64,000 nucleotides of DNA, from the NCBI GenBank assembly GCA_963722075.1, contig CAVRJM010000001.1:1120001-1184000 (forward strand). The letters run 5' to 3'. The notes beneath the pieces are model-generated. The model was given only the letters and a program-made list of their open reading frames with translations, did not search any database and was not told the DNA's origin. Source of the DNA: Candidatus Babeliales bacterium (GTDB taxonomy: Bacteria > Babelota > Babeliae > Babelales > JANWKD01). Shown here one piece after another: positions 12,271 to 42,199 of this stretch. Every line of letters starts with the position of its first letter. Position 1 is the first letter of the stretch. The position numbers and the translations under genes are program-made.

Positions 12271-13233
12271 TTAATCTTTTTTCTCATATTGCTTTGTTCT
12301 TGATTCGGCTGCACGGCAAAATGGACATACTACTGTTGCTCGAGCTGATCCTGCTTTTAAGCTTTCCCAACAGGTTTTACAAATACATTTTTTACAACCA
12401 GTAGTAATAAATTGCTCGCCTTTTTCTATTTCTTCAAAGCAAATAGGGCATTCTAATTCTTCAGTTTCTTCCTCTTCTCCTTCAGTTTTCTGTTGGGGCT
12501 GCTGCGGTAACTGCTGAGGCTGCACTTGTGGTTGTGGGTACGGAATTTGTCGGGGTGGCACTTGTTGGTGTCGATGCTTAGCTTCTATATCAATCAACTG
12601 TTGTATTAAATCATAAATTTCTTCCATTCGATGCTCATAATATCTTATTTGAGCGTTGTTATCCCATTCATAGTGAATCGGAGTTAAATAAGTTACCATT
12701 TCATCTTCAGGAAGAGGCTCTCGCGCATCTATTTTGAATAAAAGTACTACTTTATCACGATTCAATTTATTAATAATATTTTTAATTCGAGGATCAAAGT
12801 CAATTGGAAAATGCCCATTCCTCTCTAATTGATCAACTAATTTATAAATCTCCTTTATCTCAGTAGGTAAGTTAATTTTTGCTTGTGATGCGGGAGACAA
12901 ATTAAATAAACCTTCTATGTCTCTTAAGGCATACTTAACATCCCAGGACTCCATTTCAATATTATGTTGCAAATAGGATCTTAATATATCCTTAACATTT
13001 TTTAACAAGGTGATTGCTTGTTGCTCAACCTGAGTCAGTTTTACAGGAATTTGTGGTGGCATATATGATAATGTGGGTGGCCCTAAAGGTGATACCGGTG
13101 GCTTGCCCGATAGTGCATCTTCCAGCTCAGTAAGCCGATTTTTTAAATCATTAAGATCATTTACTAACTGAGCGTTACTATTTAACATCATAACTAAAAA
13201 AAATAATATTACAGAAAAATGGCCTTTTTTCAT
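12271..13233 (-). CDS. Secreted RING-finger protein (putative E3 ubiquitin ligase effector)
   Basis: Signal peptide, Pro/Gln linkers, C-terminal CPIC-x14-CKKCICKTC-x14-CPFCR. Confidence 0.8.
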   Translation of the reverse strand: MKKGHFSVILFFLVMMLNSNAQLVNDLNDLKNRLTELEDALSGKPPVSPLGPPTLSYMPPQIPVKLTQVEQQAITLLKNVKDILRSYLQHNIEMESWDVKYALRDIEGLFNLSPASQAKINLPTEIKEIYKLVDQLERNGHFPIDFDPRIKNIINKLNRDKVVLLFKIDAREPLPEDEMVTYLTPIHYEWDNNAQIRYYEHRMEEIYDLIQQLIDIEAKHRHQQVPPRQIPYPQPQVQPQQLPQQPQQKTEGEEEETEELECPICFEEIEKGEQFITTGCKKCICKTCWESLKAGSARATVVCPFCRAAESRTKQYEKKD

Positions 13234-13249
13234 TTTTATCCTTTATTTT

Positions 13250-14396
13250 CAGGACTTACGCATTGGTCGAAAGTTCTGATTGGGACTTGAAATAAATAAA
13301 AAAGGGTGCTTCAATTTTGTGAATTAAACAACAAAAGCAAAAAAGAAGGACACCCGAAATGAGAATAACAAATACAAATGAAGAATCAAGCACACCAAAA
13401 TATGTAATGGGTTTATTAAAAACAACGGCACGAAAAGTTTGCACAAATATTTCTGAAACACTGGGAATAATGCATGATGTGCTCAATAGGGAAGTTGAAA
13501 AAGCAGCCCAGAATGCAGCAGAAATAACAAGCTCATTACAAAATGTTGCTCTAGAAAGTCTTAGCAATTGCGAAAGATATTTGATAATCGATGATACTCC
13601 CGTAAATAAGCAATATGCTAACGATATTGAAGGATTAGAAATTGTTTATGATAGTAGTGAGAAAAGATCAGCTTTGGGATTACGGTCTGTAATTGGCATG
13701 ATCACTGATACCAGAGTAAGAATACCGATTGATGCGGAGATTATGATAAGCAAAGTATTTGGAGAAACCAATTACAAGACAAAAAGTGAAATTGCTTACA
13801 TTATTATAGAGCGTGTTCTAGGATCAATTCGGTTTAATTGGTTAATTGCAGATGCCCATTATGCGACTGAATACCTTCTGCCAAAGCTTTTTAACAGGTC
13901 AATAAAATTTCTGATGAAAATTCCCAGAAATCGCGTTGTTACTATTAACAATAAAACAGGACAATTGCAAAAAATTTTACGTTTGAAAAAAAATAACAGA
14001 TTTGCTTGTGGATACGGCACTATTTTTGGTCTTTCCTGTTATTTCTATGTGTTAAAAATTGATAAGGAAAAAATTATGTATCTTATCAGTAGCCATCAGC
14101 TCGGCAAAGAGAAGCTAATTTCTACATATAAGATTCGTTGGCAAATTGAATGCTTCAATAGAACTGCCAAACAACTTCTTGGATTCAGCGAATGCCAAAT
14201 GCGTTCTTTTAACATGCAGCGTGCGCATTTACTTTTCGTGTTATGGGCTTATGCTTTAGCCGACATAAGGCGGGTAAAAGATAATTTCGACAATACTGAA
14301 CAAGCTGTCAGATCCTTTCGGGTCGCAAAACCCCCTACACCATCTAGTTTATTTTATGCTTTTGAAGAGAACTCTTATGCTCTTGCGTAAGTCCTG
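13250..14396 (+). mobile_element. Complete IS, IS701-like (IS4 superfamily)
   Basis: Perfect 13-bp TIRs CAGGACTTACGCA (13250-13262 and 14384-14396), flanked by the 7-bp direct repeat TTATTTT (13243-13249 and 14397-14403). Confidence 0.92.
13359..14390 (+). CDS. DDE transposase (IS701-like)
   Basis: LIIDDT..K.Y...IEG, IADAHY, Y..RWQIE...R..KQ.LG...CQ.R; stop codon lies inside the right TIR. Confidence 0.9.
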   Translation: MRITNTNEESSTPKYVMGLLKTTARKVCTNISETLGIMHDVLNREVEKAAQNAAEITSSLQNVALESLSNCERYLIIDDTPVNKQYANDIEGLEIVYDSSEKRSALGLRSVIGMITDTRVRIPIDAEIMISKVFGETNYKTKSEIAYIIIERVLGSIRFNWLIADAHYATEYLLPKLFNRSIKFLMKIPRNRVVTINNKTGQLQKILRLKKNNRFACGYGTIFGLSCYFYVLKIDKEKIMYLISSHQLGKEKLISTYKIRWQIECFNRTAKQLLGFSECQMRSFNMQRAHLLFVLWAYALADIRRVKDNFDNTEQAVRSFRVAKPPTPSSLFYAFEENSYALA

Positions 14397-14490
14397 TTAT
14401 TTTTTATATTTCTTTTTTTGATAATGAAAAAAAATATTGATACATTGCAACTATTTTTTTAATACTAATAAAAATCTATAAGGATAAATT

Positions 14491-15516
14491 ATGGTATTTC
14501 ATATTATATATTGTTGTTTTTTTGCTTTTCTTCCCCTTCTATGCCAACCGCCCAAACTTCTCAATTGTGGTGCCACCTGTTATTTAAATGCAGCCACTCA
14601 AGCACTCTTGGCTATTAATCCGCTTAAAAATTTTTTACAATTAAATCCAAATGTTTATGCCCGAGGGTCGTTTGAAAATTCATTTCAACAATTAATAACT
14701 GCTGCGCCGCCGCTTGGCTTACCAAATCGTCAATTAATGAATACCTATGCAAAACAAGGCGCGAATATTATTGCCGGGTTATCACAAGGCAATCCCCTTG
14801 GTCAACAAGATGCATCGGAATTTTTAGGAGAGGTACTTGACCGGTTACGTACCAAGGGAAGAGAAGATAAAGAAAAAACGATTCGTCAATTTCTGAGTAA
14901 CATAATGGGTATACTTATTTATTCACAAATTGAATGCCCTCTTTCAGAATCACAATCTTATATTGCATCAAAACATACTAGCACTACGTATTATCTTTCA
15001 TTGCCAGTAAAAACAGCTTATGAGTTGCGTTCACTTGAAGAATGTTTATATGAATACTTCCAACCAGAACAGATTGAATTTAATGACCAAGAATGCAGGA
15101 AAACCAGCCAATTAGAGCACATTTCTTCTATTTTTATGGTGAGCTTAAGTAGGTATATTTTTGACATTGAAACACTAGAGGCTAAAAAATTAAGTCATTC
15201 TATACACGTTCCACTTACTTTCGATGTGCAACCATATTTAATACAAAAGCAAAATCATAATTTATATAAACTCATCGCATGCGTTGTGCATCATGGAACA
15301 GCAGCAGGAGGTCATTATGTTGCCTGTGTAAAATATGATAACCAGTGGTATCTTTGCGATGATACAACCATAACTAAGATCACTAAAAAAAAAGTAAAAC
15401 AATATGCCTCAATGGGATATATTTATATTTATGAACAAGAATCGTATACTACTATTAAAAAACAACTTGCTCATTTGAAACGAAGATTGAAAAGATTGTT
15501 AAGTCAGCTTCGCTGA
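14491..15516 (+). CDS. Secreted USP-family (C19) deubiquitinase-like protein
   Basis: Cys box LLNCGATCYLNA, QQDASEFL, His box HHGTAAGGHYVACVK..WYLCDD, GYIYIY; signal peptide. Confidence 0.92.
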   Translation: MVFHIIYCCFFAFLPLLCQPPKLLNCGATCYLNAATQALLAINPLKNFLQLNPNVYARGSFENSFQQLITAAPPLGLPNRQLMNTYAKQGANIIAGLSQGNPLGQQDASEFLGEVLDRLRTKGREDKEKTIRQFLSNIMGILIYSQIECPLSESQSYIASKHTSTTYYLSLPVKTAYELRSLEECLYEYFQPEQIEFNDQECRKTSQLEHISSIFMVSLSRYIFDIETLEAKKLSHSIHVPLTFDVQPYLIQKQNHNLYKLIACVVHHGTAAGGHYVACVKYDNQWYLCDDTTITKITKKKVKQYASMGYIYIYEQESYTTIKKQLAHLKRRLKRLLSQLR

Positions 15517-15549
15517 GCTTTTGAATGTAAAAATGAAATAATTTATTTG

Positions 15550-18421: not shown

Positions 18422-18436
18422 GAAAATACGTTACAC

Positions 18437-18594: not shown

Positions 18595-19530
18595 ATGACA
18601 ATATTCAAAAAAAATATTTTTTTTACCTTAACATTATCTCTGTTAGCTCAATCATGTATTGAAGCAAAATATTGGAATTGGGATCAAGATCCTGCTGATC
18701 CAGAAGCAGTAAAGCGTATATTTGAACAAACTATGGAGAGCGAATTACAACCACATAGTCAATCTGAAAAAGTGAAAAACACCATTCAAAACGCTAAATC
18801 AAATAAAGCAAACAATTTTAAGCAACTCGTTGCATGGAAATATTTATCAAAATATGAAGCAAAATCTGAAGCAGAGCAAGGTGGTCGCGACGAATCTATT
18901 AATTTAGCATTAAACATTATGTATGCTGAAATCGGAGATCAGTTAGATAATGCTATCAAAAAGCAAGACAAAGCTGCAACTGATGAAGATCTAAAGAGAA
19001 TTTATCATAAAATAAAAGATGTTATTAAACAAAAAATGCGCTCTGCTTACCGTCCTGCAACGGTGTTACAAGATTTCACTAAACCAGATTCTTACAATAC
19101 TACCAAAATAGAACAGTTGGTTAATCAAGAAGTTGCTAAACTCCCTAGTAATTTTAAAGAAAAACATTTTAGTGAAAATGATATCGTAGAGGTTTATCCA
19201 CAAAATAAAGTTGATCAAATGCGTTTACGCGTTCAACAAGGTAAAGTATGGCGAGAAGATGATTGTGCTGTTTGTGGCGAAGAATTTAGTACGCTTGGCA
19301 AACGAGTAAATTTAGAATGTGGGCACGCAATAATGTGCATGAAATGCGCTGTTGCCTCCATGCATATCTATAAAAAATATAACTGTCCAGTTTGCAGAGC
19401 CGCTATTGATCCAAATGATTTCTCACTCCGTTATCTCAAAAGTAATATGAAAGAATATGATTACAAAATATTTGAAAAGCTAGATCAGAATACCATGAAA
19501 CAAATCATGGATCTTTTTAAACGCGTTTAA
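18595..19530 (+). CDS. Secreted C3HC4 RING-finger protein (putative E3 ligase effector)
   Basis: Signal peptide; CAVC...LECGHAIMCMKC...CPVCR. Confidence 0.85.
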   Translation: MTIFKKNIFFTLTLSLLAQSCIEAKYWNWDQDPADPEAVKRIFEQTMESELQPHSQSEKVKNTIQNAKSNKANNFKQLVAWKYLSKYEAKSEAEQGGRDESINLALNIMYAEIGDQLDNAIKKQDKAATDEDLKRIYHKIKDVIKQKMRSAYRPATVLQDFTKPDSYNTTKIEQLVNQEVAKLPSNFKEKHFSENDIVEVYPQNKVDQMRLRVQQGKVWREDDCAVCGEEFSTLGKRVNLECGHAIMCMKCAVASMHIYKKYNCPVCRAAIDPNDFSLRYLKSNMKEYDYKIFEKLDQNTMKQIMDLFKRV

Positions 19531-19535
19531 TTATG

Positions 19536-19605: not shown

Positions 19606-21327
19606 ATGCATCTTTATTTAATTATTTTTTTAGCACTTTCTTTTTCAACTATTTCTCTGCCCATGGAGCATGATTCTGATGTTCTCATGCAGGATAAATT
19701 GCCACCACCTAACGCGAAATCCTGTGTGCAAGATTTAGACATCTTATATACAAAAAATAGTTCAGTAGCATGGAAAGGGTTATGGATTCTTAATAATCTT
19801 CTTAAGAAAAAATCATCGAATGATCTATTAACTTATTATAGAGATATGCTCAGAGCCACCCTAGGTGCAACAAATAAACCCTTATTCATTGATTATTTTA
19901 TCCCTCGTTTAAACGACCTCATTAGAACAGCTCCCCTATTATCCGATGAATCAGCACTCATGGATTCATTAGAAAGTATTATTTCATTACTCAATGAACA
20001 ATATCCAACTGAGGCATTAAAACATACCGCTCGATTAATAAAAAAACGAAAACTAAATGATCGCAAAGGAAAGCAACGAATCAGATATGATGCGCCCGAA
20101 CAATCACATTCTAATGGCACTGAAAAAAATACCATCGATATCGATGCTTTAGAAAAATCGCATAATGGATCAGTGCTCAATTTTACTAAAAAATTTGAAG
20201 ATTTTATTACATCAAAAATGGGAAATTCTCGTGACCAGCTTATTGGCAATTTAGCCGATTTTATTGGTACCCATTACCAATCGCACCCCTGGGTTTCTGC
20301 TTATTGCTATTTAAAAATGCATCTGACACCTTCCAACAGTCAAGATACACTTTTCTTTGCGCTCATGGAAAGCATTAATAGTACGTGTCTACCGCATTTA
20401 TGCCAAAATAAACAAATACAAGAATTTATTGATTCTTTCACCCAAGATGCACAACCATTAGAAATTGAAGAAGCAACACCTGCTTATTTATATGATCCAC
20501 TTAGCATTACAACGGATCTCGGGGATCAACCATGCTTATGTATTGCCCAAAAAAATCTACTAATTATCGCAGATAAGGATTTAACTATCTATGATGTTGC
20601 AAAAAAAGCGTCGGTTGCTGCTCATCCCCTGACTACTGGTATTATTGCTCTTTGTCATACGCCGGTTACTGCATATCTTCCACCAACGATCATGACTGAC
20701 TTATTACCGTATGGTGATAAACTATATCTATTATCATCAAATAATAACACTATTAAATCAGCTTTACTTTCTCCCGGTCATGATTATTTGCTTACTCTCG
20801 ATTCAGACAATACTCTTTACGCTCTTAATATTGAAGAAGAATATAATCGTAGACAATCCAATGCTAAAGAAGAAGGGCATCAGCGGATTGCAACCCAGAG
20901 TTCTTTAGATTCTGTATTATTTTTAAATAATCACAAATGTTTAGTGGGCAATTACCCTATGGCCTTGATTTGTAATTTAAAAAAAAGAAAAACTAAATCA
21001 ACAAATTATACTAATTTAAGTTATGCTACCTTATTAAATAAAATGCTCCTTACGGTGCAAGATCATACCACCCTGCATCTTTGGGACCGCAGCCAACAAA
21101 AGCGAATGATACTGGCTGATGAAAGAAAAATAAGAGGGTTAGTAAGTTTTTCGGATTTTGCAGTAGTTGCCGGTCTTGAAAATATGCTCATTTATCATAA
21201 GGATCACGGACTTATTGAAAATATAGCAGTTAAGGAATCCATTACCGCGCTGCAAAAAACCGAAAACAAATTATTTGTACATTGTTCCGATAATAAATTA
21301 TTAGTATATTCAGCACGAGAAAATTAA
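19606..21327 (+). CDS. Secreted protein with a C-terminal WD40-like beta-propeller
   Basis: Signal peptide followed by MEH; degenerate blades (LTIYDV, LSPGHDYLLT..SDNTL, DHTTLHLWD). Confidence 0.65.
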   Translation: MHLYLIIFLALSFSTISLPMEHDSDVLMQDKLPPPNAKSCVQDLDILYTKNSSVAWKGLWILNNLLKKKSSNDLLTYYRDMLRATLGATNKPLFIDYFIPRLNDLIRTAPLLSDESALMDSLESIISLLNEQYPTEALKHTARLIKKRKLNDRKGKQRIRYDAPEQSHSNGTEKNTIDIDALEKSHNGSVLNFTKKFEDFITSKMGNSRDQLIGNLADFIGTHYQSHPWVSAYCYLKMHLTPSNSQDTLFFALMESINSTCLPHLCQNKQIQEFIDSFTQDAQPLEIEEATPAYLYDPLSITTDLGDQPCLCIAQKNLLIIADKDLTIYDVAKKASVAAHPLTTGIIALCHTPVTAYLPPTIMTDLLPYGDKLYLLSSNNNTIKSALLSPGHDYLLTLDSDNTLYALNIEEEYNRRQSNAKEEGHQRIATQSSLDSVLFLNNHKCLVGNYPMALICNLKKRKTKSTNYTNLSYATLLNKMLLTVQDHTTLHLWDRSQQKRMILADERKIRGLVSFSDFAVVAGLENMLIYHKDHGLIENIAVKESITALQKTENKLFVHCSDNKLLVYSAREN

Positions 21328-21330
21328 TTT

Positions 21331-22563
21331 ATGGTTTTTATATTTTTATTATTTTATTTATTATCTCTTACTCCACTGCAATCCATGGAGGCACCCGAAG
21401 ATGATTCCGTTACTTGTTTAATAGGCATATACAACTTCCACAAAGAGGCAGACATCGAAGCAGAAGGGATCGCTCTTGTAGAAAGCGCACTACAAGAATG
21501 GCTCATTACAAATCAGCCGGCAAAACGAGATTCCATTATTGATAATTTTATAAAATTATTAGAAGGGGCTTGCAAGTACAAAATACCTCCTTTAATAACT
21601 CTTACCTGCGTATATCTTACTAAATATTATAAAAACAATTTTGATACACCTGAAACTGCACCAGAAAAAACTGCAACACAAATACAAGAAACTGCACTGC
21701 GTTTATATAATGAATTGCTCAAACTAAATCCACAAGCAAAACACACAGAATTATTTAAATTGACGCAAATTAAGTCGAGTAATCAGAGTAATATTGTTAC
21801 ACAAGCTTTTATAGCAGAAGCTACTGCCACTCAACCTTATCTGCCACCACGAACTTCGCAACCAACTATAACAACCAAGCCTAAACCCGTTTTTAAAGAC
21901 GATAAACAGAATAGCATTGAACTACGCAGCAGTAATGAAACAACCTTTTACGCAATAGTAGATAAATCACCGATACCCCGTACTGATAACCCTACTAACT
22001 CTTTTATTGCTTCCGATCATTATCTTGTTACTTGCAATAAAAACGATATAAAAGTAGATAATCAAGCGCAAGGGCGTCGTTTTACTCTCCAAGGCCATAC
22101 AGCTCCAATTTTATCAGTACATTTTATTACCACCCATAAATTAATAAGCCGCTCACGCGATGGTTGTATCTTTTTGTGGAATTTAAATAAACAAACTTAC
22201 AAAGTATTATCAAATAATAAAGATGACAAACTACGAGCGCTTGCAATTGCGCAAGGTACTATGTTTAGTCTTCACGATAACCGTATAATCAAATTTTGGG
22301 ATAGAAGTAAAAAAAGCGCATTGCCAGTACATTCCGAGGTGTTGCCAATTATTTCGGATATTGCTCTTTTTAAAAATTGTTTAGTAGCTGCAGTAGCAAC
22401 CTATTTAAAAATATGGCCTAAACATGATAGTTTTTATGAAACTCGCGATATAAACTTAAAGAATTCTTGCCCAATTACTAAATTGAGCGCTTCTGATAAC
22501 CTTTTGATGGCTTTCAATGAACAGGGTAAAGTGCATATTGTAAGTGCCGTAAAAAAAGAGTAA
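21331..22563 (+). CDS. Secreted WD40-repeat protein (paralog of the upstream gene)
   Basis: Canonical blade TLQGHTAPILSV..LISRSRDGCIFLWN; IKFWD; signal peptide followed by MEA. Confidence 0.8.
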   Translation: MVFIFLLFYLLSLTPLQSMEAPEDDSVTCLIGIYNFHKEADIEAEGIALVESALQEWLITNQPAKRDSIIDNFIKLLEGACKYKIPPLITLTCVYLTKYYKNNFDTPETAPEKTATQIQETALRLYNELLKLNPQAKHTELFKLTQIKSSNQSNIVTQAFIAEATATQPYLPPRTSQPTITTKPKPVFKDDKQNSIELRSSNETTFYAIVDKSPIPRTDNPTNSFIASDHYLVTCNKNDIKVDNQAQGRRFTLQGHTAPILSVHFITTHKLISRSRDGCIFLWNLNKQTYKVLSNNKDDKLRALAIAQGTMFSLHDNRIIKFWDRSKKSALPVHSEVLPIISDIALFKNCLVAAVATYLKIWPKHDSFYETRDINLKNSCPITKLSASDNLLMAFNEQGKVHIVSAVKKE

Positions 22564-30455: not shown

Positions 30456-30478
30456 GACCTTTGTGCCATGAGGATCCA
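30446..30478. repeat. Type-A palindrome overlapping the USP gene stop codon
   Basis: GTCATCCTAAGACCTTTGTGCCATGAGGATCCA contains the TAA at 30453-30455. Confidence 0.65.
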
Positions 30479-30624
30479 TTTATAAATTAAAATTTGATTT
30501 TATTAATGAAATCCCATTCGAAACAACTACTATAAAGACCAATTTCTTGTCAAACCAATCACATCTGTTAGACTATTTTTGCAACTTTGTTTTGTAATTA
30601 AATTTAATTGTATAAGGATTTTAT

Positions 30625-31608: not shown

Positions 31609-31733
31609 GTTTTGTATGACGGCATTAGTGATTACGCGGTTTGTCTTTGCTGCAGGGGCTTTAAATTGCTACTTGACAAAATCAAGACAACAAGGGTATT
31701 GTGTGAAAATAAAATTTAAAAAAGGAACCTTTA

Positions 31734-32846
31734 ATGAAACATCCGCTTTGGCTCGTTAATGATTTTCTTTTTATTTTATTTTTAATGATAATTTGTTTTA
31801 TGTTTATTTCTCGTCAAAAAGTCCCAACCAGTGTCAGCTTAATCCCTCGCGGAGAAATTAAGCTTCCTAAAAAAGCGGTCTCCAAGATTGACCTCAGTAA
31901 AATTTATACTAATGATCTTTTTGAAACATACCAGGCACCTGAACCTAAAGTTGAAGAAATTCCAAAAATTACCATGCCTGAACCGCCTACCCCTAAACCG
32001 GTTAAGGTACCACTTGCATTACCCGCACGATTTTTGGAACCATTACAAATCACACTAAAAGGAATCATTGCATTAGCTGATGAAGTTGAGAATATCGCGC
32101 TCATTCAAGATACTAAAACAAACGCAACAAAAAATTATAAATCAGGCGATAAAATCGAAGATGCTCAAATCATTAGAATTTTAAGCAATAAAATTATTTT
32201 AGTGCGATCAAATGGGCAACAAGAAACATTATATGTCAGTCAATATGATGCAGAATTAGATCAACAACGTCATAGGCCAACCAGTTGGTCAACCATTGTA
32301 CAAAAGAAGGAAGAGGATAATTATTTAGTTGATCCAACTGCTTTTTTAAAATTAATTCCAAATTTAGCTGAGTTTATTGATGTATTTAATTTAATTACGG
32401 TGTATAAAAAGGGTAAAAGCATCGGATGCCGTGTCGGTATGTTGCCGCAAAAATCATTACCATTGGCACTTGGCTTGCAAACCGGCGATATTATTGAAGA
32501 GATTAATGCAATACCAGCAACAACCACCGATTCTCGCTTTGAAATTTATCAAAAAGTAACGGCGCTTCAATTAGGTGACACAATAGAGGTAAAGCTTATG
32601 AGAAATAATGATGAATTTATCATTACCTATACATTACAACAACTAGAAGAACCTACTTTATCACCCGCGCCATCGGGCTTGGAAAAATCAATGCAAGAAA
32701 TTGAAGCTGAAAAAGTCGAACTGTTGCGCCAACAACATCAATTTGCACCAACATTAGAACAAATACGCATGCAGCAAAAGCGCGATATGGTGAACTATAG
32801 TAATAGAAATCGACGTAATTTTAATTTGCTTAATCGTCAGCCATAA
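31734..32846 (+). CDS. gspC: T2SS GspC-like protein (TM, HR and PDZ-like domains)
   Basis: N-terminal TM; L.GII......ALI, Y..GD.I..A.I..I....I..NG..E.L (HR); GLQTGDII.EIN (PDZ). Confidence 0.8.
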   Translation: MKHPLWLVNDFLFILFLMIICFMFISRQKVPTSVSLIPRGEIKLPKKAVSKIDLSKIYTNDLFETYQAPEPKVEEIPKITMPEPPTPKPVKVPLALPARFLEPLQITLKGIIALADEVENIALIQDTKTNATKNYKSGDKIEDAQIIRILSNKIILVRSNGQQETLYVSQYDAELDQQRHRPTSWSTIVQKKEEDNYLVDPTAFLKLIPNLAEFIDVFNLITVYKKGKSIGCRVGMLPQKSLPLALGLQTGDIIEEINAIPATTTDSRFEIYQKVTALQLGDTIEVKLMRNNDEFIITYTLQQLEEPTLSPAPSGLEKSMQEIEAEKVELLRQQHQFAPTLEQIRMQQKRDMVNYSNRNRRNFNLLNRQP

Positions 32847-32860
32847 AGTGGAAAAAAAGA

Positions 32861-35659
32861 ATGAAAATTAAGGGTAACAAATTATTTATCGTTCAAATAT
32901 TAATGCTCATGCTCCTGACGCCTAGTGCTATGCTTATTGCTCAATTATCAACGGCACTTGCTCCAGCACTGCCTGCTGATTATAACCAACCAGCAAAAAG
33001 AAGAAGAGTCTCAAAGCGTGAACGATTACATAGCCATAATAAAGAAAACCATAATAAAGAAAAGAAACAACACCGGCGACGTTCTATAACAACAGCGCTC
33101 CCTTTCGTTGCCAATCCAACGGTGCTTAAAGAACAAGATGGTGACCCAGATAACACATTGAAAAATATTTCAATAACCCAGCAAGAGCTTGAACGAGTAT
33201 TTAAAACACAAGAAGATACCGAAGCTCATTTAATAAGAGATGTTTCTTCATTACGGCCCAAAGAAGCATTTGATGATGTTAATACCATCTCTATTAATTT
33301 AGAAAAAGCAGAGCTTACTAATCTACTTACCTGGATTGAATCAGTTTTTAAAGTAAAATTTTTAAGTGGCGACTCCATTAATCCTCCTGCTGCGGGCAAA
33401 GTATCTGGTAATCTTATAAGTTATAAAACACATAAACCTATGACTAAAAAAGATGTGTGGGATCTCTTTTTAAACTTCCTTGATCTTTTTGGCTTGACGA
33501 TTGTTGCAAATCATTATACCGATGATTATCCAGATTCTTATACGGTAATGCCACAAGATACTGCCAACCAAGCTGCGCTTCCTGCTTTTGTCGGCGTTGA
33601 TTGGAAAACGTTACCAAATAATGATGCTAAAATTCGTTATGTTTACTTTGTTGAAAATGGCCCTGCAGCAAATTTATCAAATTTAGTACAAGATCTTAAA
33701 AGCAAATCAGCAGTAGTGCAAACATTTAATGCGCTCAATGCTATCATATTTTCTGATAAATCAGTAAATATAAAATCATTGATGGCTATTATTTCCGAAC
33801 TTGATAATGTAAGCATGCCTGAAGCAATGTCGGTGTTAAAATTAAAACATGCCAATGCTGAAGATGTGGTTAATTTATATCAAAGCTTAGTTTCTACCGA
33901 AGAAAAAGGAAGCGTTGCGGCACGCCTTTTTGGCGCAAAAAAACAGCCAACCGCTGTTTATTTTCCTGAAGACACGCAACTTTTTGCAGAGCCGCGCAGT
34001 AACGCCTTAATTATTTTAGGAAACCGTGAAGGGATAGCTAAAGTAGAAAATTTTATTATTGAGTACGTTGATACAGAACTTAAACAACCGTATTCACCAC
34101 TGTATGTCCATAAATTAGAATATGCTAATTCTGATAACATGGCAGCCCTTTTAACCAAAGTAACTGGCTTTGCAAGCGGCACCCCCGCGGCCATCTATGG
34201 TGGTGTTCGTGGCGGCGATAAATATTTTAGACCAATGACCTTCATATCAGAGCCAAGCGGCAATAAATTACTTATTAAAGCCGAAAAGGATGATTATTTA
34301 AAAGTAAAAGAAATTATTAAAAAACTTGACGTTAAGCAACCGCAAGTGGCTATCGAAGTTCTTATTGTAAGCGTAAACGTTGATAAACTAAAATCACTTG
34401 GCGTACAATTACGAAATAAAGCACCCAACACGCTTGGTATTACCGATAATATAGCATTTCAAACCTCTGGATTAGGACTATCAGGAGCGCAAACACCTAT
34501 TGTAACTGATGCAAATGGTGGCCTCATGGGTAACTTAATTAGCTTAGCATCCAGTGCTAATAACTTTTTCAGCCCGGGCACCACGCTCATTTCAATTGGC
34601 AGTAATATAGTAGGCGGTGTTTGGGCACTTTTCCAAGCTTTGGAAACATATACCTTTGCAAACGTCGTTTCACATCCATTTTTGATTTCCACCAATAAAT
34701 ACACGGCACAAGTTTCGGTTGGTGAAATACGACGGGTAGCAACGGGTACAGTGACCGGCGCAGGACCAACCCAAAATACTCAAGGTGACGTTTCTGCAAA
34801 TCTATCCGTTTCAATTACGCCACAAATTAATAGTGACGGCATTATTAATCTTTCGATAGAAATAAGTATTGATACCTTCACCAGCCCCGATGCAACCAGC
34901 CCGACAAAAAATACGCGGGTAGTAAAAACCAATTCAAACTTAGCAAATGGTGAAATTCTGGCTATTGGTGGTCTTATTCAAGATACTATTTCAGAGTTGC
35001 AAACCGGCGTACCGCTCTTACAACGTGTTCCATTACTTGGTTGGTTCTTTAAAAATAGAACAAAAGATAAATCAAAAAATAACTTAGTAATCTTCATCTC
35101 ACCACAAATTGTACAACCACGCACACAAGGCGGCATTGGCGATTATTCACAGCAAAAAGCCATTCTTGCACAGGATGATATGTGTGCCATGCGCCATTGC
35201 TCTGAACAACGTGATCCAATCCATCGTTGGTTCTTTAGAGATTATCCATGCGAAGATACTGAAGCAATCGACGACTTTATTAATCCAAATGAATGCAACC
35301 TTATCAAAGCATATAATTGTAGAACAGGCCAAGAATACCCACTTGATTCAGTTGAAACTGATATGGCACGCTGTTGCGACACTCCTCCTTTTGTTGATAG
35401 TGGGCCATGTACACCAGATGGCGATCATGTTACCCCATTATGCGAGCCAACGTGCCCACGACCATGCCAACCAATAAGTCCATGCCCAGAGCGTGAATAT
35501 GCACCGATTATATGCGCTAATGAGCAACAATCAGTTACCATAATCCCTGAAAAAAATAATTTGCTTGCAATAAATGAAAATACCAATCCTAAAGGTACTT
35601 TAAAACGCAAACAATCAGTAACTGACTTTCTAGAAAAAAATACGGAGGTTAACGTATGA
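32861..35659 (+). CDS. gspD: T2SS secretin GspD-like, copy 1, with basic N-terminal and Cys-rich C-terminal extensions
   Basis: N-domains (L.HANAE, PRSNALII.G), LD..QPQVAIEV.I, ITPQIN, GE.LAIGGLI, VPLL..VPLLGWFF, L.IFISP.IV. Confidence 0.9.
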   Translation: MKIKGNKLFIVQILMLMLLTPSAMLIAQLSTALAPALPADYNQPAKRRRVSKRERLHSHNKENHNKEKKQHRRRSITTALPFVANPTVLKEQDGDPDNTLKNISITQQELERVFKTQEDTEAHLIRDVSSLRPKEAFDDVNTISINLEKAELTNLLTWIESVFKVKFLSGDSINPPAAGKVSGNLISYKTHKPMTKKDVWDLFLNFLDLFGLTIVANHYTDDYPDSYTVMPQDTANQAALPAFVGVDWKTLPNNDAKIRYVYFVENGPAANLSNLVQDLKSKSAVVQTFNALNAIIFSDKSVNIKSLMAIISELDNVSMPEAMSVLKLKHANAEDVVNLYQSLVSTEEKGSVAARLFGAKKQPTAVYFPEDTQLFAEPRSNALIILGNREGIAKVENFIIEYVDTELKQPYSPLYVHKLEYANSDNMAALLTKVTGFASGTPAAIYGGVRGGDKYFRPMTFISEPSGNKLLIKAEKDDYLKVKEIIKKLDVKQPQVAIEVLIVSVNVDKLKSLGVQLRNKAPNTLGITDNIAFQTSGLGLSGAQTPIVTDANGGLMGNLISLASSANNFFSPGTTLISIGSNIVGGVWALFQALETYTFANVVSHPFLISTNKYTAQVSVGEIRRVATGTVTGAGPTQNTQGDVSANLSVSITPQINSDGIINLSIEISIDTFTSPDATSPTKNTRVVKTNSNLANGEILAIGGLIQDTISELQTGVPLLQRVPLLGWFFKNRTKDKSKNNLVIFISPQIVQPRTQGGIGDYSQQKAILAQDDMCAMRHCSEQRDPIHRWFFRDYPCEDTEAIDDFINPNECNLIKAYNCRTGQEYPLDSVETDMARCCDTPPFVDSGPCTPDGDHVTPLCEPTCPRPCQPISPCPEREYAPIICANEQQSVTIIPEKNNLLAINENTNPKGTLKRKQSVTDFLEKNTEVNV

Positions 35660-37293
35660 TTGGCCGATTGATAAAAAATGTCTTAATTCCTGAACGTATT
35701 GGCTCTTATTACTTAATCCCACAACGCATCATTGGGTTTGACATTAACAAAACGAGCATTCATGTCACTCAATTAATTCGACGGGGAAATGCTATTGTAT
35801 TAGAAAAATTTATCGATCAACCATTAGAACTTGAGCCAACCGCACCCTATAACGAACGGGTAAGTAGTACCATACGTACTATTTTAAATAAAGTTGACCG
35901 CTACGATATTATTCGCAGTTCAATTGCTAGTTCTACTGCCATATTTAAAGAATTAACGCTCCCCTTTACTGATCCTGAAAAAATTAATATGGTACTCAAT
36001 TTTGAAATAGAGCCCTTTTTACCGTTCCCCATTACGCAAACGGTTGTAGATTTCATTATCACGCACACTAATAGCGCACAGCAGCAATCAACCGTACTAG
36101 CGGCAGCCGTTAAAAAAGAATATATTGCGGAACATATAAACTATTTTGAACAAGCAGGGGTATTACCAAATGTACTCACCGTTGATTTATTTGATTTATA
36201 CGGCCTTTATAAATATATCCCTCGCTATGCTCAAGAACCTAAAAATAATGTACTCATCGATATTGGTTTTAATACAATACGAATCGCTTATATCGTCGAA
36301 GGCAAGCTAACGCTCGTGAGAACCTTAGCAAAAGGAATTTCAACGTGGGCTAAAAATGTTAGTCAACTCACCTCAATTACGCCACAAGAAGCATTAGAAA
36401 AAATTATTCGGTTTGGATTAGAGCATAATAATGATCAGGCTTACAATACCGCTATTAAGGAATCAATACTTTCTACCTTAACTGAATTACGATTCACGCT
36501 CGATTCCTTTATTGCTCAAACAAAAACAGATCAATCCATTAATAAGATATTTTTACTCGGTCAAGGTGCTGAAATTGCCGATATTAGCAGTTTTTTTAGT
36601 AAGCAGTTACATATTACTGGTGAGCTATTTGAAGTTAATGAATTATTAAAAACAAGATCTGTTTCATTAAAAAATGAAAACCGTATACCGCGCTATGCCA
36701 TTTTAAGCTTAAGTACCGCTATTACTACGCCGACCACTGAACGATTTAATTTACTTAAACAAGAATTTGCACCCGCGCATCTCTCGCTTTTTTATAAGCA
36801 ACTTGGTACTGCTGCGCTCTTTTTGTTATTAATTTTTGGCAGCATGTTTGCCTATACCTGGTGGCAAGTAAGTTCATTAAAAAAAACCGCACAATCATTT
36901 GAAAGTGAAATAGCAACCTTACTTAATCAACGAGGACTTGCCAAATCTAAAAACATGAACGATGCCATTAAACAAGCGGAAGAAAAAGTAAGCCAAGAAG
37001 AATCAATTTGGTTTGCATTCTCCAGCCAAACGCGCTTTTCCTTTTTAAAATATTTGCAAGATATTAGTAGTGCTTTGGACCGCGAAGCAACGGGATTGGT
37101 ACTTAAAAAATTAATTATTACTGAACAAGAACCACGCAGCATGGTATTAGAGGGAGAAGTAGCTGATTTTGATGCTTTAAAAATATTAGAACGGGAATTA
37201 AAGCAATCGAATTTATTTACGAGCATCCCCAGCTTACAATCAACTAAATTTAATTTACCATTAACCTTTAAAAAAGCAGGAGAACCTTCGTAA
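35656..37293 (+). CDS. PilM/GspL-like actin-fold assembly protein with TM and periplasmic domain
   Basis: IGFDI, L.LPF.D..KI..VL.FEIE..LPF, LIDIG, IFL.G.GA; TM near residue 390; L.GEV.DF.AL. Confidence 0.8.
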   Translation: MIGRLIKNVLIPERIGSYYLIPQRIIGFDINKTSIHVTQLIRRGNAIVLEKFIDQPLELEPTAPYNERVSSTIRTILNKVDRYDIIRSSIASSTAIFKELTLPFTDPEKINMVLNFEIEPFLPFPITQTVVDFIITHTNSAQQQSTVLAAAVKKEYIAEHINYFEQAGVLPNVLTVDLFDLYGLYKYIPRYAQEPKNNVLIDIGFNTIRIAYIVEGKLTLVRTLAKGISTWAKNVSQLTSITPQEALEKIIRFGLEHNNDQAYNTAIKESILSTLTELRFTLDSFIAQTKTDQSINKIFLLGQGAEIADISSFFSKQLHITGELFEVNELLKTRSVSLKNENRIPRYAILSLSTAITTPTTERFNLLKQEFAPAHLSLFYKQLGTAALFLLLIFGSMFAYTWWQVSSLKKTAQSFESEIATLLNQRGLAKSKNMNDAIKQAEEKVSQEESIWFAFSSQTRFSFLKYLQDISSALDREATGLVLKKLIITEQEPRSMVLEGEVADFDALKILERELKQSNLFTSIPSLQSTKFNLPLTFKKAGEPS

Positions 37294-37862
37294 TGGCTTT
37301 TTTTGTTTCGATAAAGGACTATTTAGATAATTTAGAGTCAAAAGATTTTAAAAAATATGTAACAATCGGTCTTGCTATTGTATTACTATTAGCAGGACTC
37401 TTAATGGTCCAATATTACCGATCAGTGTGGGCTTTACAATCACGCATTGCTGTTATTAATAAGCGACGACGTGATGTACAAAATATGCTTGAACGATTTG
37501 AGCGCGTAAAAAAACAGCAAATTGAAGTAAACACAAGCTTGGCTAAAGAAAAAGATTTTAAAATTTCACAATTCTTTGAAAATTTACTGCAAAAACTCGG
37601 GATTGATAAAAATAAAACCCAACAACCTGAAACGCTTCCAAAGGATGTTCTAGATGGATATACCGAATGGACGCTCTATGTTAACTTATCCAATTTGAAT
37701 ACTAAAAAATTGAGTGAACTTTTATACGCAATTGAACAAGAAGAACGAATTTACACCAAAGAATTAGAGATAGAAAAATCAACTAAAAGCAATGCGATTA
37801 ATGTAAAAATTACTATAGCAACGTTGGAACCTAAAGCGGAATTACAAAAAATTACAGAGTAA
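37293..37862 (+). CDS. GspM-like protein
   Basis: N-terminal TM, coiled coil, ferredoxin-like tail (V.L.NL....L.E.LY.IE); operon position. Confidence 0.65.
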   Translation: MAFFVSIKDYLDNLESKDFKKYVTIGLAIVLLLAGLLMVQYYRSVWALQSRIAVINKRRRDVQNMLERFERVKKQQIEVNTSLAKEKDFKISQFFENLLQKLGIDKNKTQQPETLPKDVLDGYTEWTLYVNLSNLNTKKLSELLYAIEQEERIYTKELEIEKSTKSNAINVKITIATLEPKAELQKITE

Positions 37863-37865
37863 ATT

Positions 37866-40265
37866 ATGATATCTATAAAATTTTTATTCATGTTCCTTTT
37901 ATTCGTAATAACTCATTGTTCAAATAGCACTGCTGACAATGAAACTCCTGCTGATATAAAACAAGTGCTTGAAGAAAAATTAAATCTCCAACCAGTAGAA
38001 GTACCTATTGCCCCGGAACAAGAAATTAAACCAATTGAAAAAAAATATACATTCAATTACCAAGATGTTCCTTTGACGGATATCATTAATGAGTGGGCAA
38101 CAGAAAATAAGCTTAACGTTTTACTACCACAAGGATCTCAAGCAATTACCACAAAAATTAAATATGCACTACCGTATAAAGTTACGAAAGAACAGTTTAC
38201 TGAAGAACTATATAAACTATTAGAATTCGCTGGATATTCATGGGAAGTAAAAAACAATCAATTAACTATTATTAAAATTGATGCCAATACTCAACGCGAA
38301 CCGCTCACGCTTTATATCAATCCCATGCTTGAAGAAATACCCGATACGGGGCAAGTCATTCAGGCAATTTTTTATTTATCCAATTTAAAAGTTAAAGATC
38401 CTAATAGCCCACTTGACGCACTACTAAAAGGGCAAACAGGAATGCTCTCAACAAACGCGTCCTTAAAAGTTGATGAAAAAACAAATGCATTAATTATCAT
38501 TGATAAGGCAAACACAATTCGCGCTGCGATGACTATTATTCGCCAACTTGATTTAGAAGGAATTCCAGATGCTATTGAAGTATTGCCGCTGTATTACGTA
38601 CAAGCAAATTATATTGAAACGTTATTTAAACAACTTTTTACCACCACGCCACAAGTAGCTACGGCTCCCGGAACGCGTGAAGCTGCTACTAAAACCAGTA
38701 CCTATTTTCCTCCCAATACAAAAGTATTAGCACTCAATCGCACCAATACCATTGTTATTATGGGCTCAGTGCGCGCTATCAGGATTGTTAAAGAATTTAT
38801 TATTAAATACATTGACCATCCGCTGGATTCTGGTAAATCAATTTTACATATTTACGAACTGCAGTATCTTAACGCAGAAGAATCTGCCCCAATTTTACAA
38901 CAGCTTGTTAATAAAAAAGAAACAGGGCAAGCACAAACACAAGCAGCTGCTGGGCCAACCCGCGATTTTATGGATGTCATTATTGAGGCAGAAAAAACAA
39001 GTATTACTGCTGCGATTGCACCGACAACTGCTGAAGGAGCACCCGCTGCAGCGGTGTCTGAAGGCGTTCAACAAGGTGGAAACCGCCTCATTATCGCTGC
39101 ACGCAAAAAAGATTGGCAACGGATTAAAAAGTTAATTGAAGAACTTGATACCCCGGTCCCACAAGTGGCGATTGAAGTATTAGTGGTAGATCTAAGCCTT
39201 AATGAAAATAAGGTGCTTGGTGATCAAATGCGCAATAAGAGTGGCTTTAATTCAAGTCTTTCAAATAACATCAATTTCCAAACGGCTAATTTAGCAGCAC
39301 CCATTATTCAACCGGCAAATAATATCATTAATGCCAGCGGTGAAACAGTAAGCTCATTCCCTGCAAACGCACTTGCCTCAAATTTATTACAGTTTATTAC
39401 TGATAATACAAATCTAGCAAACGTTGCTACACCAGGATCATTAGTTATATCATTTAATGATCCCAATGGCAGCGGCATTTGGAATGTTATACAATTGCTT
39501 GATAAATATACTAATAATACTATTTTGACCCAACCGTTTATTGTTACCACTGATAATAAACAAGCAACCATTTCGCTTTCAGAAGATCGTCTTTTAGAGG
39601 GTGGTGCCAATACTGATGGTGGTGCTATTACCGTAAAAAATGAATATGTAACTGCTGCTACTTCAATTGATATTCTCCCCACTATTAGCGTTGGTACTAA
39701 AAATATTAATTTGCAACTTAATATTACCGTTAACACCTTTATTTCAAATGCAAATAACCGCGCATCACGCCTTATTCAAACAAATGCTAATGTCGGTGAT
39801 GGTGAAGTATTAGCGCTCGGTGGATTAATTACCACCACTGATAGCGTAACGGAATTTGACACACCACTTCTAGCACGCATCCCTTTACTGGGCTGGTTCT
39901 TTAAACGCCGTAGTAAAACACGCATTAAAACAAATCTTATGATTTTTATCTCTCCAAAAATAATTCAACCTCGTATTGGCGGTGGGGCTGATACATACAC
40001 GGAGAATAAATTGTGCTTTGTTGAAACGCAACTGCAAGACGAAGCTAATTTTGAAGATTTACGAGATCCGATCACCCGTTGGTTCTTTAAACCTAATGTT
40101 AATTTCGCCCACGATGTTATTGATGATTACGTTGAACAACAAGCTTCATATCCCATTGAGCCTAAAAAAGTAAATGTAGAAAAAGAACAATTAAAAGAAT
40201 TAAAAGAGCTTATACAAGGACAAGACAATCCGGTATTAAAACTCAGTCAGCAAGGTGCCAGTTAA
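37866..40265 (+). CDS. gspD: T2SS secretin GspD-like, copy 2
   Basis: FNYQDV.L.DII, TNALII, LD.PVPQVAIEV, GE.LALGGLI, PLL.RIPLLGWFF, LMIFISPKII. Confidence 0.9.
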   Translation: MISIKFLFMFLLFVITHCSNSTADNETPADIKQVLEEKLNLQPVEVPIAPEQEIKPIEKKYTFNYQDVPLTDIINEWATENKLNVLLPQGSQAITTKIKYALPYKVTKEQFTEELYKLLEFAGYSWEVKNNQLTIIKIDANTQREPLTLYINPMLEEIPDTGQVIQAIFYLSNLKVKDPNSPLDALLKGQTGMLSTNASLKVDEKTNALIIIDKANTIRAAMTIIRQLDLEGIPDAIEVLPLYYVQANYIETLFKQLFTTTPQVATAPGTREAATKTSTYFPPNTKVLALNRTNTIVIMGSVRAIRIVKEFIIKYIDHPLDSGKSILHIYELQYLNAEESAPILQQLVNKKETGQAQTQAAAGPTRDFMDVIIEAEKTSITAAIAPTTAEGAPAAAVSEGVQQGGNRLIIAARKKDWQRIKKLIEELDTPVPQVAIEVLVVDLSLNENKVLGDQMRNKSGFNSSLSNNINFQTANLAAPIIQPANNIINASGETVSSFPANALASNLLQFITDNTNLANVATPGSLVISFNDPNGSGIWNVIQLLDKYTNNTILTQPFIVTTDNKQATISLSEDRLLEGGANTDGGAITVKNEYVTAATSIDILPTISVGTKNINLQLNITVNTFISNANNRASRLIQTNANVGDGEVLALGGLITTTDSVTEFDTPLLARIPLLGWFFKRRSKTRIKTNLMIFISPKIIQPRIGGGADTYTENKLCFVETQLQDEANFEDLRDPITRWFFKPNVNFAHDVIDDYVEQQASYPIEPKKVNVEKEQLKELKELIQGQDNPVLKLSQQGAS

Positions 40266-41489
40266 ACGATCTTCAATACGCAGCAAGCGGTTATATTTTG
40301 CAAGATTTTCTGAACGTGAGCACCCGCCAGCTTTTATTTGACCAACGCTGGTTGCTACGGTTAAATCGGCAATAAAAGAATCTTCCGTTTCGCCCGAACG
40401 ATGAGAAATGATAACATTCATCTGATCATTAACGCATTCTTTAATGGCATAGAGGGATTCACTAACGGTACCTAATTGATTTGGTTTGATGAGCGCCGTA
40501 TTGGCAGCACCCATTAAGATACCATGTTTAATACGGGCAACGGAGCTTGCAAATAAATCATCACCTACTAATTGAATCTTACTTCCCAATGCCTGATTTA
40601 ATGCTACCCATCCTTGCCAATCATCTTGATCTAACCCATCTTCAATAGAATAAATAGGATATGCTTCAACAAGATTTATGTAGAATTTTATTAATTCTTC
40701 CGCAGTTAAAAAATCATCATGCCATTGATAACACCGCGTTTTTTTATCATAAAATTGTGATGCAGCCACATCGATAGCTATAGCAAATTGATCACCATCG
40801 CCAATTTTTGAAATAATATCTACCATAAAATCAAGCGCTTCCATTTCATCATCAAACGCAGCACCAAACCCACCTTCATCACCAACTGAGATATTTTTAC
40901 CTGCTGCTTGCAGACTCTTTTGCAGTTCATGAAAAAAGGTAACGCCGAGTTCCATCGCTTCTCTGAAATTATTGCCTTTGACCGGAACTATCATAAATTC
41001 TTGTATACGCAATCCATTATTAGCATGTGCGCCACCATTAATAACATTAAAGAGTGGGTAGGGAAGGCTTATTGATTCGGCACCATATAAATGAGCAAGG
41101 AGTTCATATAACTCCATATTTTCAACAACCGCTTGCGCTTTAACTATTGCTTGACTGACTGCTAGCATCGTATTAGCACCGAGCTTTTTTTTCTGTTCAG
41201 TGCCATCTAAGTTAAGTAAAAACTCATCTGCTTTAAATAAATCTGGTTTTTTAAAAAGAAGCTCTGGTGCAATTTTTTTTTCGATGCATTCTATTGCCTT
41301 TAGTACCCCTTTACCAAAAAGACGAGAACCGCCATCGCGCAATTCAAACGCCTCATGAGCACCTTTTGATGCACCAGAAGGAACAGAAGCTATAACCGAT
41401 CTATCATTATCTAAGACAATCTGGCATTCCAGCGTAGGAAAGCCGCGTGAATCATAAATCTCGCGCGCTATAATTTGGGCTATTTTCAT
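40236..41489 (-). CDS. eno: Enolase
   Basis: DSRGFPT, VPSGASKG.HEA, NGGAHA, GDEGGF, SHRSGETED, AKYNRLLRIE. Confidence 0.97.
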   Translation of the reverse strand: MKIAQIIAREIYDSRGFPTLECQIVLDNDRSVIASVPSGASKGAHEAFELRDGGSRLFGKGVLKAIECIEKKIAPELLFKKPDLFKADEFLLNLDGTEQKKKLGANTMLAVSQAIVKAQAVVENMELYELLAHLYGAESISLPYPLFNVINGGAHANNGLRIQEFMIVPVKGNNFREAMELGVTFFHELQKSLQAAGKNISVGDEGGFGAAFDDEMEALDFMVDIISKIGDGDQFAIAIDVAASQFYDKKTRCYQWHDDFLTAEELIKFYINLVEAYPIYSIEDGLDQDDWQGWVALNQALGSKIQLVGDDLFASSVARIKHGILMGAANTALIKPNQLGTVSESLYAIKECVNDQMNVIISHRSGETEDSFIADLTVATSVGQIKAGGCSRSENLAKYNRLLRIEDRLTGTLLTEF

Positions 41490-41500
41490 TTTTAACCTTA

Positions 41501-42199
41501 TTAAGTAGTTAATAATTGAAATAGTTGATCAAGCTTTATTTTAAGTGAATTTAATGTTGTTGAAACAACATCAGCATGTTGTACCGGTACATTCGCCTCT
41601 TTAACAGGAACAGCAGCTACCGTTTCAACTGGTTTTTTTATTTGTGTTGGCACTGCTGTTGAAATTTGTTGAGCTGGAAGACCTTTCATTGTAGTAATAT
41701 AGGAAGCAATGAATTGTGATGCGTCAAGTTTACCTTCAAGATTCTCCTTAAAAAGTGCAGAATCAGGAAAAAGATTATATTGCTTATCACCTTTCTTAAC
41801 ACTACCTTTCCTTATAACTTCCCGTAAATCGATCCATATAAAATTATTATCTAAAACTGCTTCTGTGATAAATTTTTTTAAAGGAACCATAATTACCCGG
41901 TTCCCTCGGTAGGTTACCGTTTCTGCATAGCGCTCTATAAATTGTTCGTCAATAATCTCATTAAATTGTTCTTTAAAAACTCCCTGAAGAATAGGTATTG
42001 TTTGTACTATTACTTGCTCCCTGTTTATTGCCGGTTGCGCATTAAATGCTATTCCCGGCCAAAGCACTGCACCATCATAAACGAATAAACCGTATATTTT
42101 ACCAGAATTGTTATCATAAAAAACTGGTAATACATATTCTTTTGCACCAAATAAAAAGATACTTTGACCTAAAAACAAAATAAATAATATTTTTTTCAT
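41501..42199 (-). CDS. Secreted hypothetical protein with a C-terminal leucine module
   Basis: Signal peptide; Pro/Val/Ala linker; ends VSTTLNSLKIKLDQLFQLLTT. Confidence 0.7.
   Translation of the reverse strand: MKKILFILFLGQSIFLFGAKEYVLPVFYDNNSGKIYGLFVYDGAVLWPGIAFNAQPAINREQVIVQTIPILQGVFKEQFNEIIDEQFIERYAETVTYRGNRVIMVPLKKFITEAVLDNNFIWIDLREVIRKGSVKKGDKQYNLFPDSALFKENLEGKLDASQFIASYITTMKGLPAQQISTAVPTQIKKPVETVAAVPVKEANVPVQHADVVSTTLNSLKIKLDQLFQLLTT

Follow-up and report, generated by a model that had tools for sequence, protein, structure and literature searches.

Each enzyme of a cellulosome carries one docking module, the dockerin, which lies at either end of the protein next to a Pro/Thr-rich linker and matches its partner in a species-specific manner, and Burkholderia TssM is a bacterial ubiquitin-specific protease (USP) that is type II secreted. 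Here we describe a leucine-rich helical module of 19 amino acids (the tag) that sits at one end of four exported proteins, three of them ubiquitin enzymes, encoded in a 64,000-nucleotide stretch of the genome of a Candidatus Babeliales bacterium, a parasite of protists (the window; contig CAVRJM010000001.1, positions 1,120,001 to 1,184,000), and at the ends of many other exported proteins of the same genome. The tag resembles the dockerin in its layout of one module per enzyme, but its fold is unrelated and no repeated receptor scaffold for it was found in the window genome. Designed all-Leu coiled coils (Coil-Ser 1cos, sc-apCC3 9rgy and 1g6u) and natural terminal zippers share with it leucines at a and d, lysines at e/g and a length of three to five heptads; unlike the designed coils, the tag is natural and occurs on dozens of unrelated exported proteins.

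Papers cited by PMC number were covered in part. Bartonella BID, a type IV secretion signal spread by terminal reassortment, is likewise a portable module that was fused independently to different effector enzymes (PMC5675462), whereas the tag has 19-43 residues and occurs on proteins with Sec signals, at one end or the other, and most putative effectors lack it; in the parts of the Babela account covered, no type IV system is reported (PMC4378268). TssM, like the tagged USPs, combines a bacterial USP with an accessory domain, here one proposed to self-associate and to localise the protein to the bacterial surface, but this domain has an Ig fold and is found in that protein alone (PMC10719079). 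Babela massiliensis, from the same phylum, has secreted C19 USPs, a RING protein and a type II system, and hence the same cargo classes and export, but a shared terminal helix is not mentioned in the parts of that account covered (PMC4378268). The module is also undescribed in the literature searched, including the covered parts of PMC6561590, PMC4776705, PMC4378268 and PMC12172432, although the supplements of PMC4378268 and PMC4776705 could bear on its novelty. By analogy, the tag would work like known portable effector modules such as BID and the dockerin while belonging to none of those tested.

A terminal helix on exported proteins

The window genome (G000; 1.47 Mb in four contigs) yielded 1426 open reading frames (ORFs) under a simple ORF rule, of which 631 encode signal-peptide proteins without a further membrane helix according to a crude hydropathy rule rather than SignalP; these counts are approximate. 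Comparisons used a genome of the same genus (G194), a distant genome (G041) and other members of the phylum, with families and lineages labelled f and g. The initial annotation had proposed that four secreted proteins in the window share a discrete, movable tag. All four peptides translate as it described, and each of the four ORFs opens with a signal-peptide-like stretch by the hydropathy rule. The carriers and their modules (N-type or C-type by location) are as follows.

12271-13233, minus strand: candidate RING-type E3 ligase with signal peptide and N-terminal tag, 320 aa (zf-RING_2, 29 bits; cut-off 27.3)
13111-13167, minus strand: its zipper module, N-type, starting at residue 23 right behind the signal peptide
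14491-15516, plus strand: USP1, signal-peptide USP/C19 deubiquitinase, 341 aa (UCH, E = 2e-37)
15454-15510, plus strand: USP1 zipper module, C-type, about 8 residues past the USP domain
29061-30455, plus strand: USP2, signal-peptide USP deubiquitinase, 464 aa (UCH, E = 2e-35)
30252-30380, plus strand: USP2 acidic Pro/Glu-rich linker (unstructured in the AlphaFold model, pLDDT < 50 at residues 400-438)
30381-30437, plus strand: USP2 zipper module, C-type, within a predicted helix at residues 432-463
41501-42199, minus strand: signal-peptide protein of predicted Nudix fold, 232 aa (structural match of its model)
41510-41566, minus strand: Nudix-protein zipper module, C-type, in a predicted helix at model residues 188-212 (pLDDT 76-87)

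A strict consensus of the tag, [LIV]xxxLxxL[KQ]x[KR]LxxLxxxL, matches 14 of the 1426 ORFs, compared with a mean of 0.03 and a maximum of 1 in shuffles (n = 100). All 14 proteins have a signal-like start, and the match lies right behind the signal or at the C-terminus. A position-specific scoring matrix (PSSM) built from the four window copies identified, at 16 bits or more, 11 held-out proteins in which the match was terminal in every case (expected 0.75; terminal background 20.9% of sequence windows).

We also examined, without any seed, all 123 six-site amphipathic sequence windows of G000. Those with five inner leucines (an all-Leu heptad) were terminal in 26 of 28 cases and were both terminal and in signal-peptide proteins in 25 of 28 (background 9.3%). 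In contrast, generic windows with at most three leucines were terminal in 12 of 85 cases, and in 5 of 85 were terminal in signal-peptide proteins (Fisher p = 3e-14 for terminal location of all-Leu versus generic windows). The idea that the tag is placed no differently from generic coiled coils is therefore contradicted. In 0.8 Mb of G041, all seven all-Leu windows are in signal-peptide proteins, five of them strictly terminal, one at residue 34 and one internal. A reversed-sequence control was uninformative because the leucine pattern is palindromic.

Because unrestricted PSSM iteration drifted to generic coiled coils such as that of ClpB, carriers were hand-picked from the ranked PSSM and seed-free lists. 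The resulting 37 carriers in G000 (25 N-type and 12 C-type) take in a few sub-threshold terminal copies (scores 7.6-12.9) and leave out internal coiled coils and some doubtful terminal matches. All 37 start with a signal-peptide-like stretch, 34 by rule and 3 on inspection. A discrete movable tag confined to exported proteins is strongly supported; it is carried by about 5% of signal-peptide proteins (34/631). The carriers fall into 32 cargo clusters by BLAST. The description of the four window cargos as otherwise unrelated does not hold for USP1 and USP2, which are homologues (29% in alignment, one BLAST cluster). Similarly, the tag is terminal in all four window carriers, whereas the claim that it is always so does not extend to relatives, where 13 of 79 copies are internal.

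Heptad register and lineage-specific length

In the module pattern, core leucines occupy positions 1, 5, 8, 12, 15 and 19 and lysines positions 9 and 11. All 59 modules that we aligned, which were selected on this pattern, have leucine at positions 5, 8 and 15, and K/R is present at position 9 in 45 and at position 11 in 44. The aliphatic residues keep an unbroken 4-3 register, mostly over 6-13 core positions, and only 1 of 290 core residues is aromatic. In long versions, which have 9-13 core positions and about 30-43 residues, the stripe spreads over 52 degrees at heptad pitch versus 120-160 on a straight helix. Strict heptads across 30-43 residues fit a supercoiled bundle better than a flat membrane face. 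Sequence comparison with the PDB gave designed coiled coils with all-Leu cores as the best matches (9rgy, E = 4e-4; 1g6u; 1cos Coil-Ser), and the tag is predicted to contribute a single strand to a short coiled coil. Of the three functions suggested initially, a translocation signal, an assembly zipper and a membrane anchor, the zipper fits best, given the strict register over up to 13 core positions and these PDB matches.

RhxxhE is a trimer motif and is present in just 1 of the 59 modules. No Pfam-A family matched any of the 59 above its curated cut-off (best E = 0.01, each family being matched by one member), a comparison of low power for peptides this short, and none of the four window carriers matched NCBIfam.

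The number of core positions differs among lineages: 6 in 32/51 modules of f1, 8 in 20/25 of g30, 10 in 8/13 of g104 and 9-10 in 7/8 of g28, and, where the register runs on past the 19-residue model, it reaches 9-11 in g28 and g104 and 10-13 in g118. Taking one module per lineage and cargo cluster across five lineages, lineage explains length variance with R2 = 0.78 (81 lineage-by-cargo units; maximum 0.27 in 2000 permutations), and one PPDK_N-type cargo cluster has 9, 8 and 10 core positions in three lineages. Tag length is set by lineage, not by the cargo protein. Module sequences also show a lineage dialect: similarity is 8.3 between unrelated cargos of the same lineage, 5.1 across lineages and 10.3 between related cargos across lineages (12 pairs), with the USP modules of g104 and g28 left out of this comparison of orthologs with dialect. 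Within G000 itself the dialect is weak.

Cargo, linkers and absences

Among the 33 carriers of G000 outside the window, Pfam identified NUDIX, NADAR, EEP, Macro, MavL-like ADP-ribosylhydrolase and DnaJ domains and, doubtfully, BrxC-helical; the remainder had no match above cut-off. The cargo-side flanks of modules contain 12.8% proline, compared with 3.8% genome-wide, and both AlphaFold models (USP2 and the Nudix-fold protein) place a predicted helix behind a low-confidence linker. The tag was found on 0 of 40 ankyrin ORFs and 0 of 8 mapped WD40 ORFs of G000 (p = 0.10, not significant alone), and neither a second RING protein nor the Macro and DnaJ paralogues with signal peptides have it.

Exported ADP-ribose- or nucleotide-processing folds are concentrated in G000 and all tagged (L005 at G000:C1:313440-316318, L004, L008 and L012), the folds of this set being Nudix, a Nudix-NADAR fusion, Macro and MavL-like. 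One tagged paralogue (L019:4217-5556) is broken into two ORFs and has a mosaic make-up drawn from its neighbours, with segments 100% identical.

A separate feature of the exported proteins is Met followed by Glu, Gln, Asn, Asp or Lys at the predicted mature start, found in 194 of the 631 signal-peptide proteins versus 21 in a control window; G194 is alike (218 versus 39) and G041 is not (12 versus 10). In the window such starts occur, for example, at 8841-9335, 19606-21327, 21331-22563, 26031-27026, 27288-27713, 50371-51144 and 51098-52456, and just 3 of 34 module carriers show them. These ends resemble eukaryotic NatB acetylation substrates, and N-end mimicry is possible.

Distribution among relatives

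A 59-row profile hidden Markov model (HMM), which misses divergent copies, was run at E <= 0.02 on 261 genomes of the phylum and matched 25 of them. Twelve genomes, from families f1 and f11, have at least four matches; ten of these had fed the profile, and the other two (G233 and G239, 11 matches each) had not. At least one of the singleton matches is ClpB. The 79 copies read in relatives comprised 41 N-terminal, 24 C-terminal, 13 internal and 1 undetermined, and the internal copies mostly sit between Pro-rich linkers; one shadow ORF was removed before the length analysis. Cargo found additionally in relatives includes dual-specificity phosphatase, metallophosphoesterase, PPDK_N-like, ankyrin and IQ domains.

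G194 has no profile match, yet a variant helix lies at the end of its Nudix, NADAR and USP orthologues, so that the seeming lack of the tag in this genome is partly due to insensitivity of the HMM. The three copies (n = 3) share a divergent Leu-Ile start, while their G000 counterparts have Glu at position 2. Judged by eye, the helix is kept in the nine closest USP2 homologues (9/9) and in 3/3 Nudix homologues, with a linker that can be missing or as long as about 200 residues.

USPs occur in 89 of the 261 genomes. In 20 USPs, mostly from tag-poor families, the helix is clear in 3 and divergent in 1 or 2, and it is absent from the signal-bearing USPs of f3 (0/6) and f13 (0/3). Among 45 USP loci taken from genome records, only two named Babeliales have it; it is missing from two other named Babeliales/Dependentiae records and from the remaining 41 loci, many of them from Cardinium or chlamydiae. 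A profile search of 1.84 billion representatives returned five generic repeat proteins, but a 23-position profile is underpowered at this scale and restriction to Babeliales is thus unproven; the ESM Atlas gave no match. The typA-truA zipper array of e1-2958227 is not in G000 or G194, where typA and truA are adjacent.

Other arrangements were seen in relatives. At G041:C1:487946-488008 (L228) a module stands at the end of an ankyrin gene with an in-frame stop between them. A 3751-codon frame at G039:C17:15571-23664 encodes several tandem USP domains, and f11 has further multi-USP proteins. Giant signal-peptide proteins L051, L056 and L060 (G039, G142 and G166) combine a zipper with a PPDK_N-like ATP-binding domain, in one case also with a dual-specificity phosphatase, and are possibly glucan- or lipid-phosphorylation effectors.

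The window carriers and the gsp cluster

The RING domain of the E3 candidate spans residues 261-307 (12313-12453), although the usual His ligand position is not His, and its module is followed by a Pro-rich linker at 13045-13110. Both USPs have a UCH domain with intact Cys and His boxes, and USP1 also retains QQDAxEF. Three of the four modules are set off by Pro/acidic or Pro/Val/Ala linkers, and that of USP1 by just about 8 residues; the C-type modules end 1 (USP1), 5 (USP2) and 2 (Nudix) residues ahead of the stop.

The model of the fourth carrier (pLDDT 63) matches RenU best (6uuf_B; Z 8.0, rmsd 3.9, 113 aligned). This Z is middling, yet most of the 50 rows are consistently Nudix-fold chains, and the protein also aligns with the Pfam-positive L004. 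Its linker at 41567-41668 has low confidence. By the Nudix box consensus, the box glutamates are not evident, the RE..EE residues of L004 being replaced, and the protein is possibly a pseudo-enzyme.

Two further features of the window are listed for comparison and context.

18595-19530, plus strand: second signal-peptide RING protein, without module (internal control)
31734-40265, plus strand: gspC (PDZ-like domain), gspD1, pilM/gspL-like, gspM/pilO-like and gspD2

The gsp genes are the probable export route of the carriers. USP2 lies directly upstream of the moxR-gspC cluster, and its G194 orthologue is placed alike; the order USP-moxR-gspC-gspD-pilM-gspM-gspD (29061-40265) is kept in G194 (L177/L176), and moxR adjoins gspC in G041 too. 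A role as assembly factor is possible for the MoxR AAA+ protein, whose gene lies upstream of this cluster. GspC (31734-32846, plus strand) has a PDZ-like domain and a charged helical tail, with two tail sequence types among 12 genomes. The two gspD copies follow the pattern of the TM6 genomes of PMC4776705, all of which are reported to have two, and it is suggested there that one secretin may serve a pilus and not a second effector class. The two T2SSE-family ATPases of G000 and the pseudopilin-like genes just beyond the window are consistent with this suggestion.

Elsewhere in the window, a DDE transposase lies between the RING and USP1 genes (13359-14390, plus strand). A 755-aa signal-peptide protein (52486-54753, minus strand) has no Pfam match and an aromatic last residue, like an outer-membrane barrel, and four small exported orphan genes lie at 8265-10501 (minus strand), two of them ending in a similar HFGGY motif.

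What the tag may do

We favour, at somewhat less than an even chance, the reading that the tag is a portable coiled-coil docking helix with a partner common to all carriers. One pattern is retained on unrelated cargos, whose tags change length in step, and selection to fit a common partner is the simplest reading of this behaviour. Carriers would be exported by Sec, lose their signal peptides and then pass through type II secretion, the only secretion system reported for Babela in the parts of the account covered (PMC4378268). The free helix would then join a partner of matching length in a bundle of three or four helices. Most simply, this partner would be the same tag on other carriers, forming mixed bundles, although a single bacterial or host coiled coil would serve equally. 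Deubiquitinases, a ligase, ADP-ribose/nucleotide hydrolases and phosphatases might thereby be gathered where bacterium and host meet, and would there edit marks of host defence. A more specific form of this proposal, possible but doubtful, is a lineage-tuned "zipper code" in which a strand length-matched on dozens of unrelated effectors (about 19, 26 or 33 residues) would plug deubiquitinases, ADP-ribose erasers and phosphatases into a multi-enzyme assembly or into a vacuole-exit step for type II-secreted enzymes.

Several results weigh against a common partner. No partner emerged from an acidic-zipper scan, a gene-content comparison or a comparison of GspC tails: the G000 proteome has one weak window resembling a complementary acidic zipper, and the genes present in G000 and G041 (0.8 of 1.45 Mb) but not in G194 include no partner candidate, a weak test because G194 still has a few divergent copies. 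Windowed self-comparison found no helical repeat scaffold in G000. A length of 19 residues is short for a stable coiled coil, and the f11 versions have paired lysines without charge compensation. The dialect is modest (8.3 versus 5.1) with a weak signal inside G000, the length test rests on five lineages, and one founder cassette copied without any partner could also yield lineage-specific length and dialect. A complex prediction for two RING modules and one USP2 module (score 0.25, mark 0.32; controls not folded) was not used as evidence.

Copying of a cassette (signal peptide plus helix, or helix plus stop) is also central to the main alternative, which we consider unlikely, namely that each carrier self-dimerises or self-trimerises through a private tag and that the likeness within lineages merely reflects this copying. 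The all-Leu a/d cores resemble Coil-Ser-type bundles, and Glu at position 4, present in 11 of 25 N-type copies of G000, could pair with Lys9 of a neighbouring strand under the pairing rule for parallel helices. Carriers are clustered on the chromosome (15 neighbours within 10 kb versus 8.1 expected), and module DNA can stand alone: L086 (G000:C1:343432-343494), a frame of 23 codons without a normal start between phoH and an ankyrin gene, is probably a gene relic. However, at the DNA level non-paralogous modules of G000 share no more than 72% identity (46% is the median over all pairs), so that copying was not recent. Zippers that are nearly identical on 32 cargo types should cross-pair, and the old orthologous copies on Nudix, NADAR and USP proteins have shifted together in G194.

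We regard as quite unlikely that the tag is a sorting signal for a subset of type II substrates, read by a periplasmic chaperone, by GspC/D/L/M or at a second translocation step across the vacuole membrane. The signal-peptide-like starts of all 37 carriers and the position of USP2 and its G194 orthologue next to the gsp cluster would suit such a role, as would the existence of portable helical signals in type IV secretion, exemplified by BID (PMC5675462); Babela grows inside a vacuole (PMC4378268), and a second translocation step is therefore needed. Against this, the prevailing view is that type II signals are structural (PMC7949064). The tag occurs at N-terminal, C-terminal and internal sites. 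Its absence from the ankyrin and WD40 ORFs, from the second RING protein and from the signal-bearing USPs of f3 and f13 also argues against this role. A general type II signal should be on most substrates and co-vary with the machinery. Taking signal-peptide proteins as presumptive substrates, the tag is on 34 of 631; the secretion system is phylum-wide, with GspC in 10/10 genomes queried versus the tag in 25/261 (a count from which the HMM misses divergent copies), and tag length varies independently of the GspC tail. The initial suggestion of a translocation signal for the dual-secretin system is thus unlikely as a general rule.

An amphipathic membrane anchor, in which the Leu face would insert and the lysines would bind to anionic lipid, either at the bacterial outer surface or in outer-membrane vesicles or the vacuole, appears improbable. 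Lysines do flank the hydrophobic face, and some homologues have another tail instead of the tag: a hydrophobic helix (L260) and a polybasic tail (L275) in two named Babeliales USPs, and a polybasic tail in the G194 homologue of the Nudix-fold protein at 41501-42199, all anecdotal. But the hydrophobic face consists of a narrow all-Leu stripe with almost no aromatics, the HeliQuest lipid-binding discriminant exceeds 1.33 in only 8 of 58 modules (25 are intermediate), and heptad pitch across 30-43 residues is not planar, which disfavours an anchor for the long versions in particular.

Mimicry of a host short linear motif is very improbable: the spacing pattern of leucine-rich nuclear export signals fits 59/59 modules, but trivially, and a fixed host groove would not be expected to go with tags whose length changes by whole heptads between bacterial lineages. 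As for the MIM1 motif of ESCRT-III, which binds MIT domains, an LxxK/RLxxL core is found in 43/59 modules and C-type copies lie behind acidic linkers, but the full consensus [DE]xxLxxRLxxL[KR] (PMC12057046) matches 0/59, so that a MIM1 identity fails, and the key Arg is present in 4/59; no MIT domain reached the cut-off in G000.

Implications

The tag is real and, as far as the literature searched extends, undescribed, and we infer its mechanism. In Chromulinavorax, 44% of proteins have signal peptides (PMC6561590), and across Babelota a very large part of the proteome is exported, with type II secretion apparently the sole route. Within this exported set the tag marks a subclass of effectors, many orphans included, across several families. 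If a shared partner exists, the tag would belong to a new system of effector assembly or second-step delivery, and the zipper code, if true, would give type II effectors a system akin to dockerins or to portable signals.

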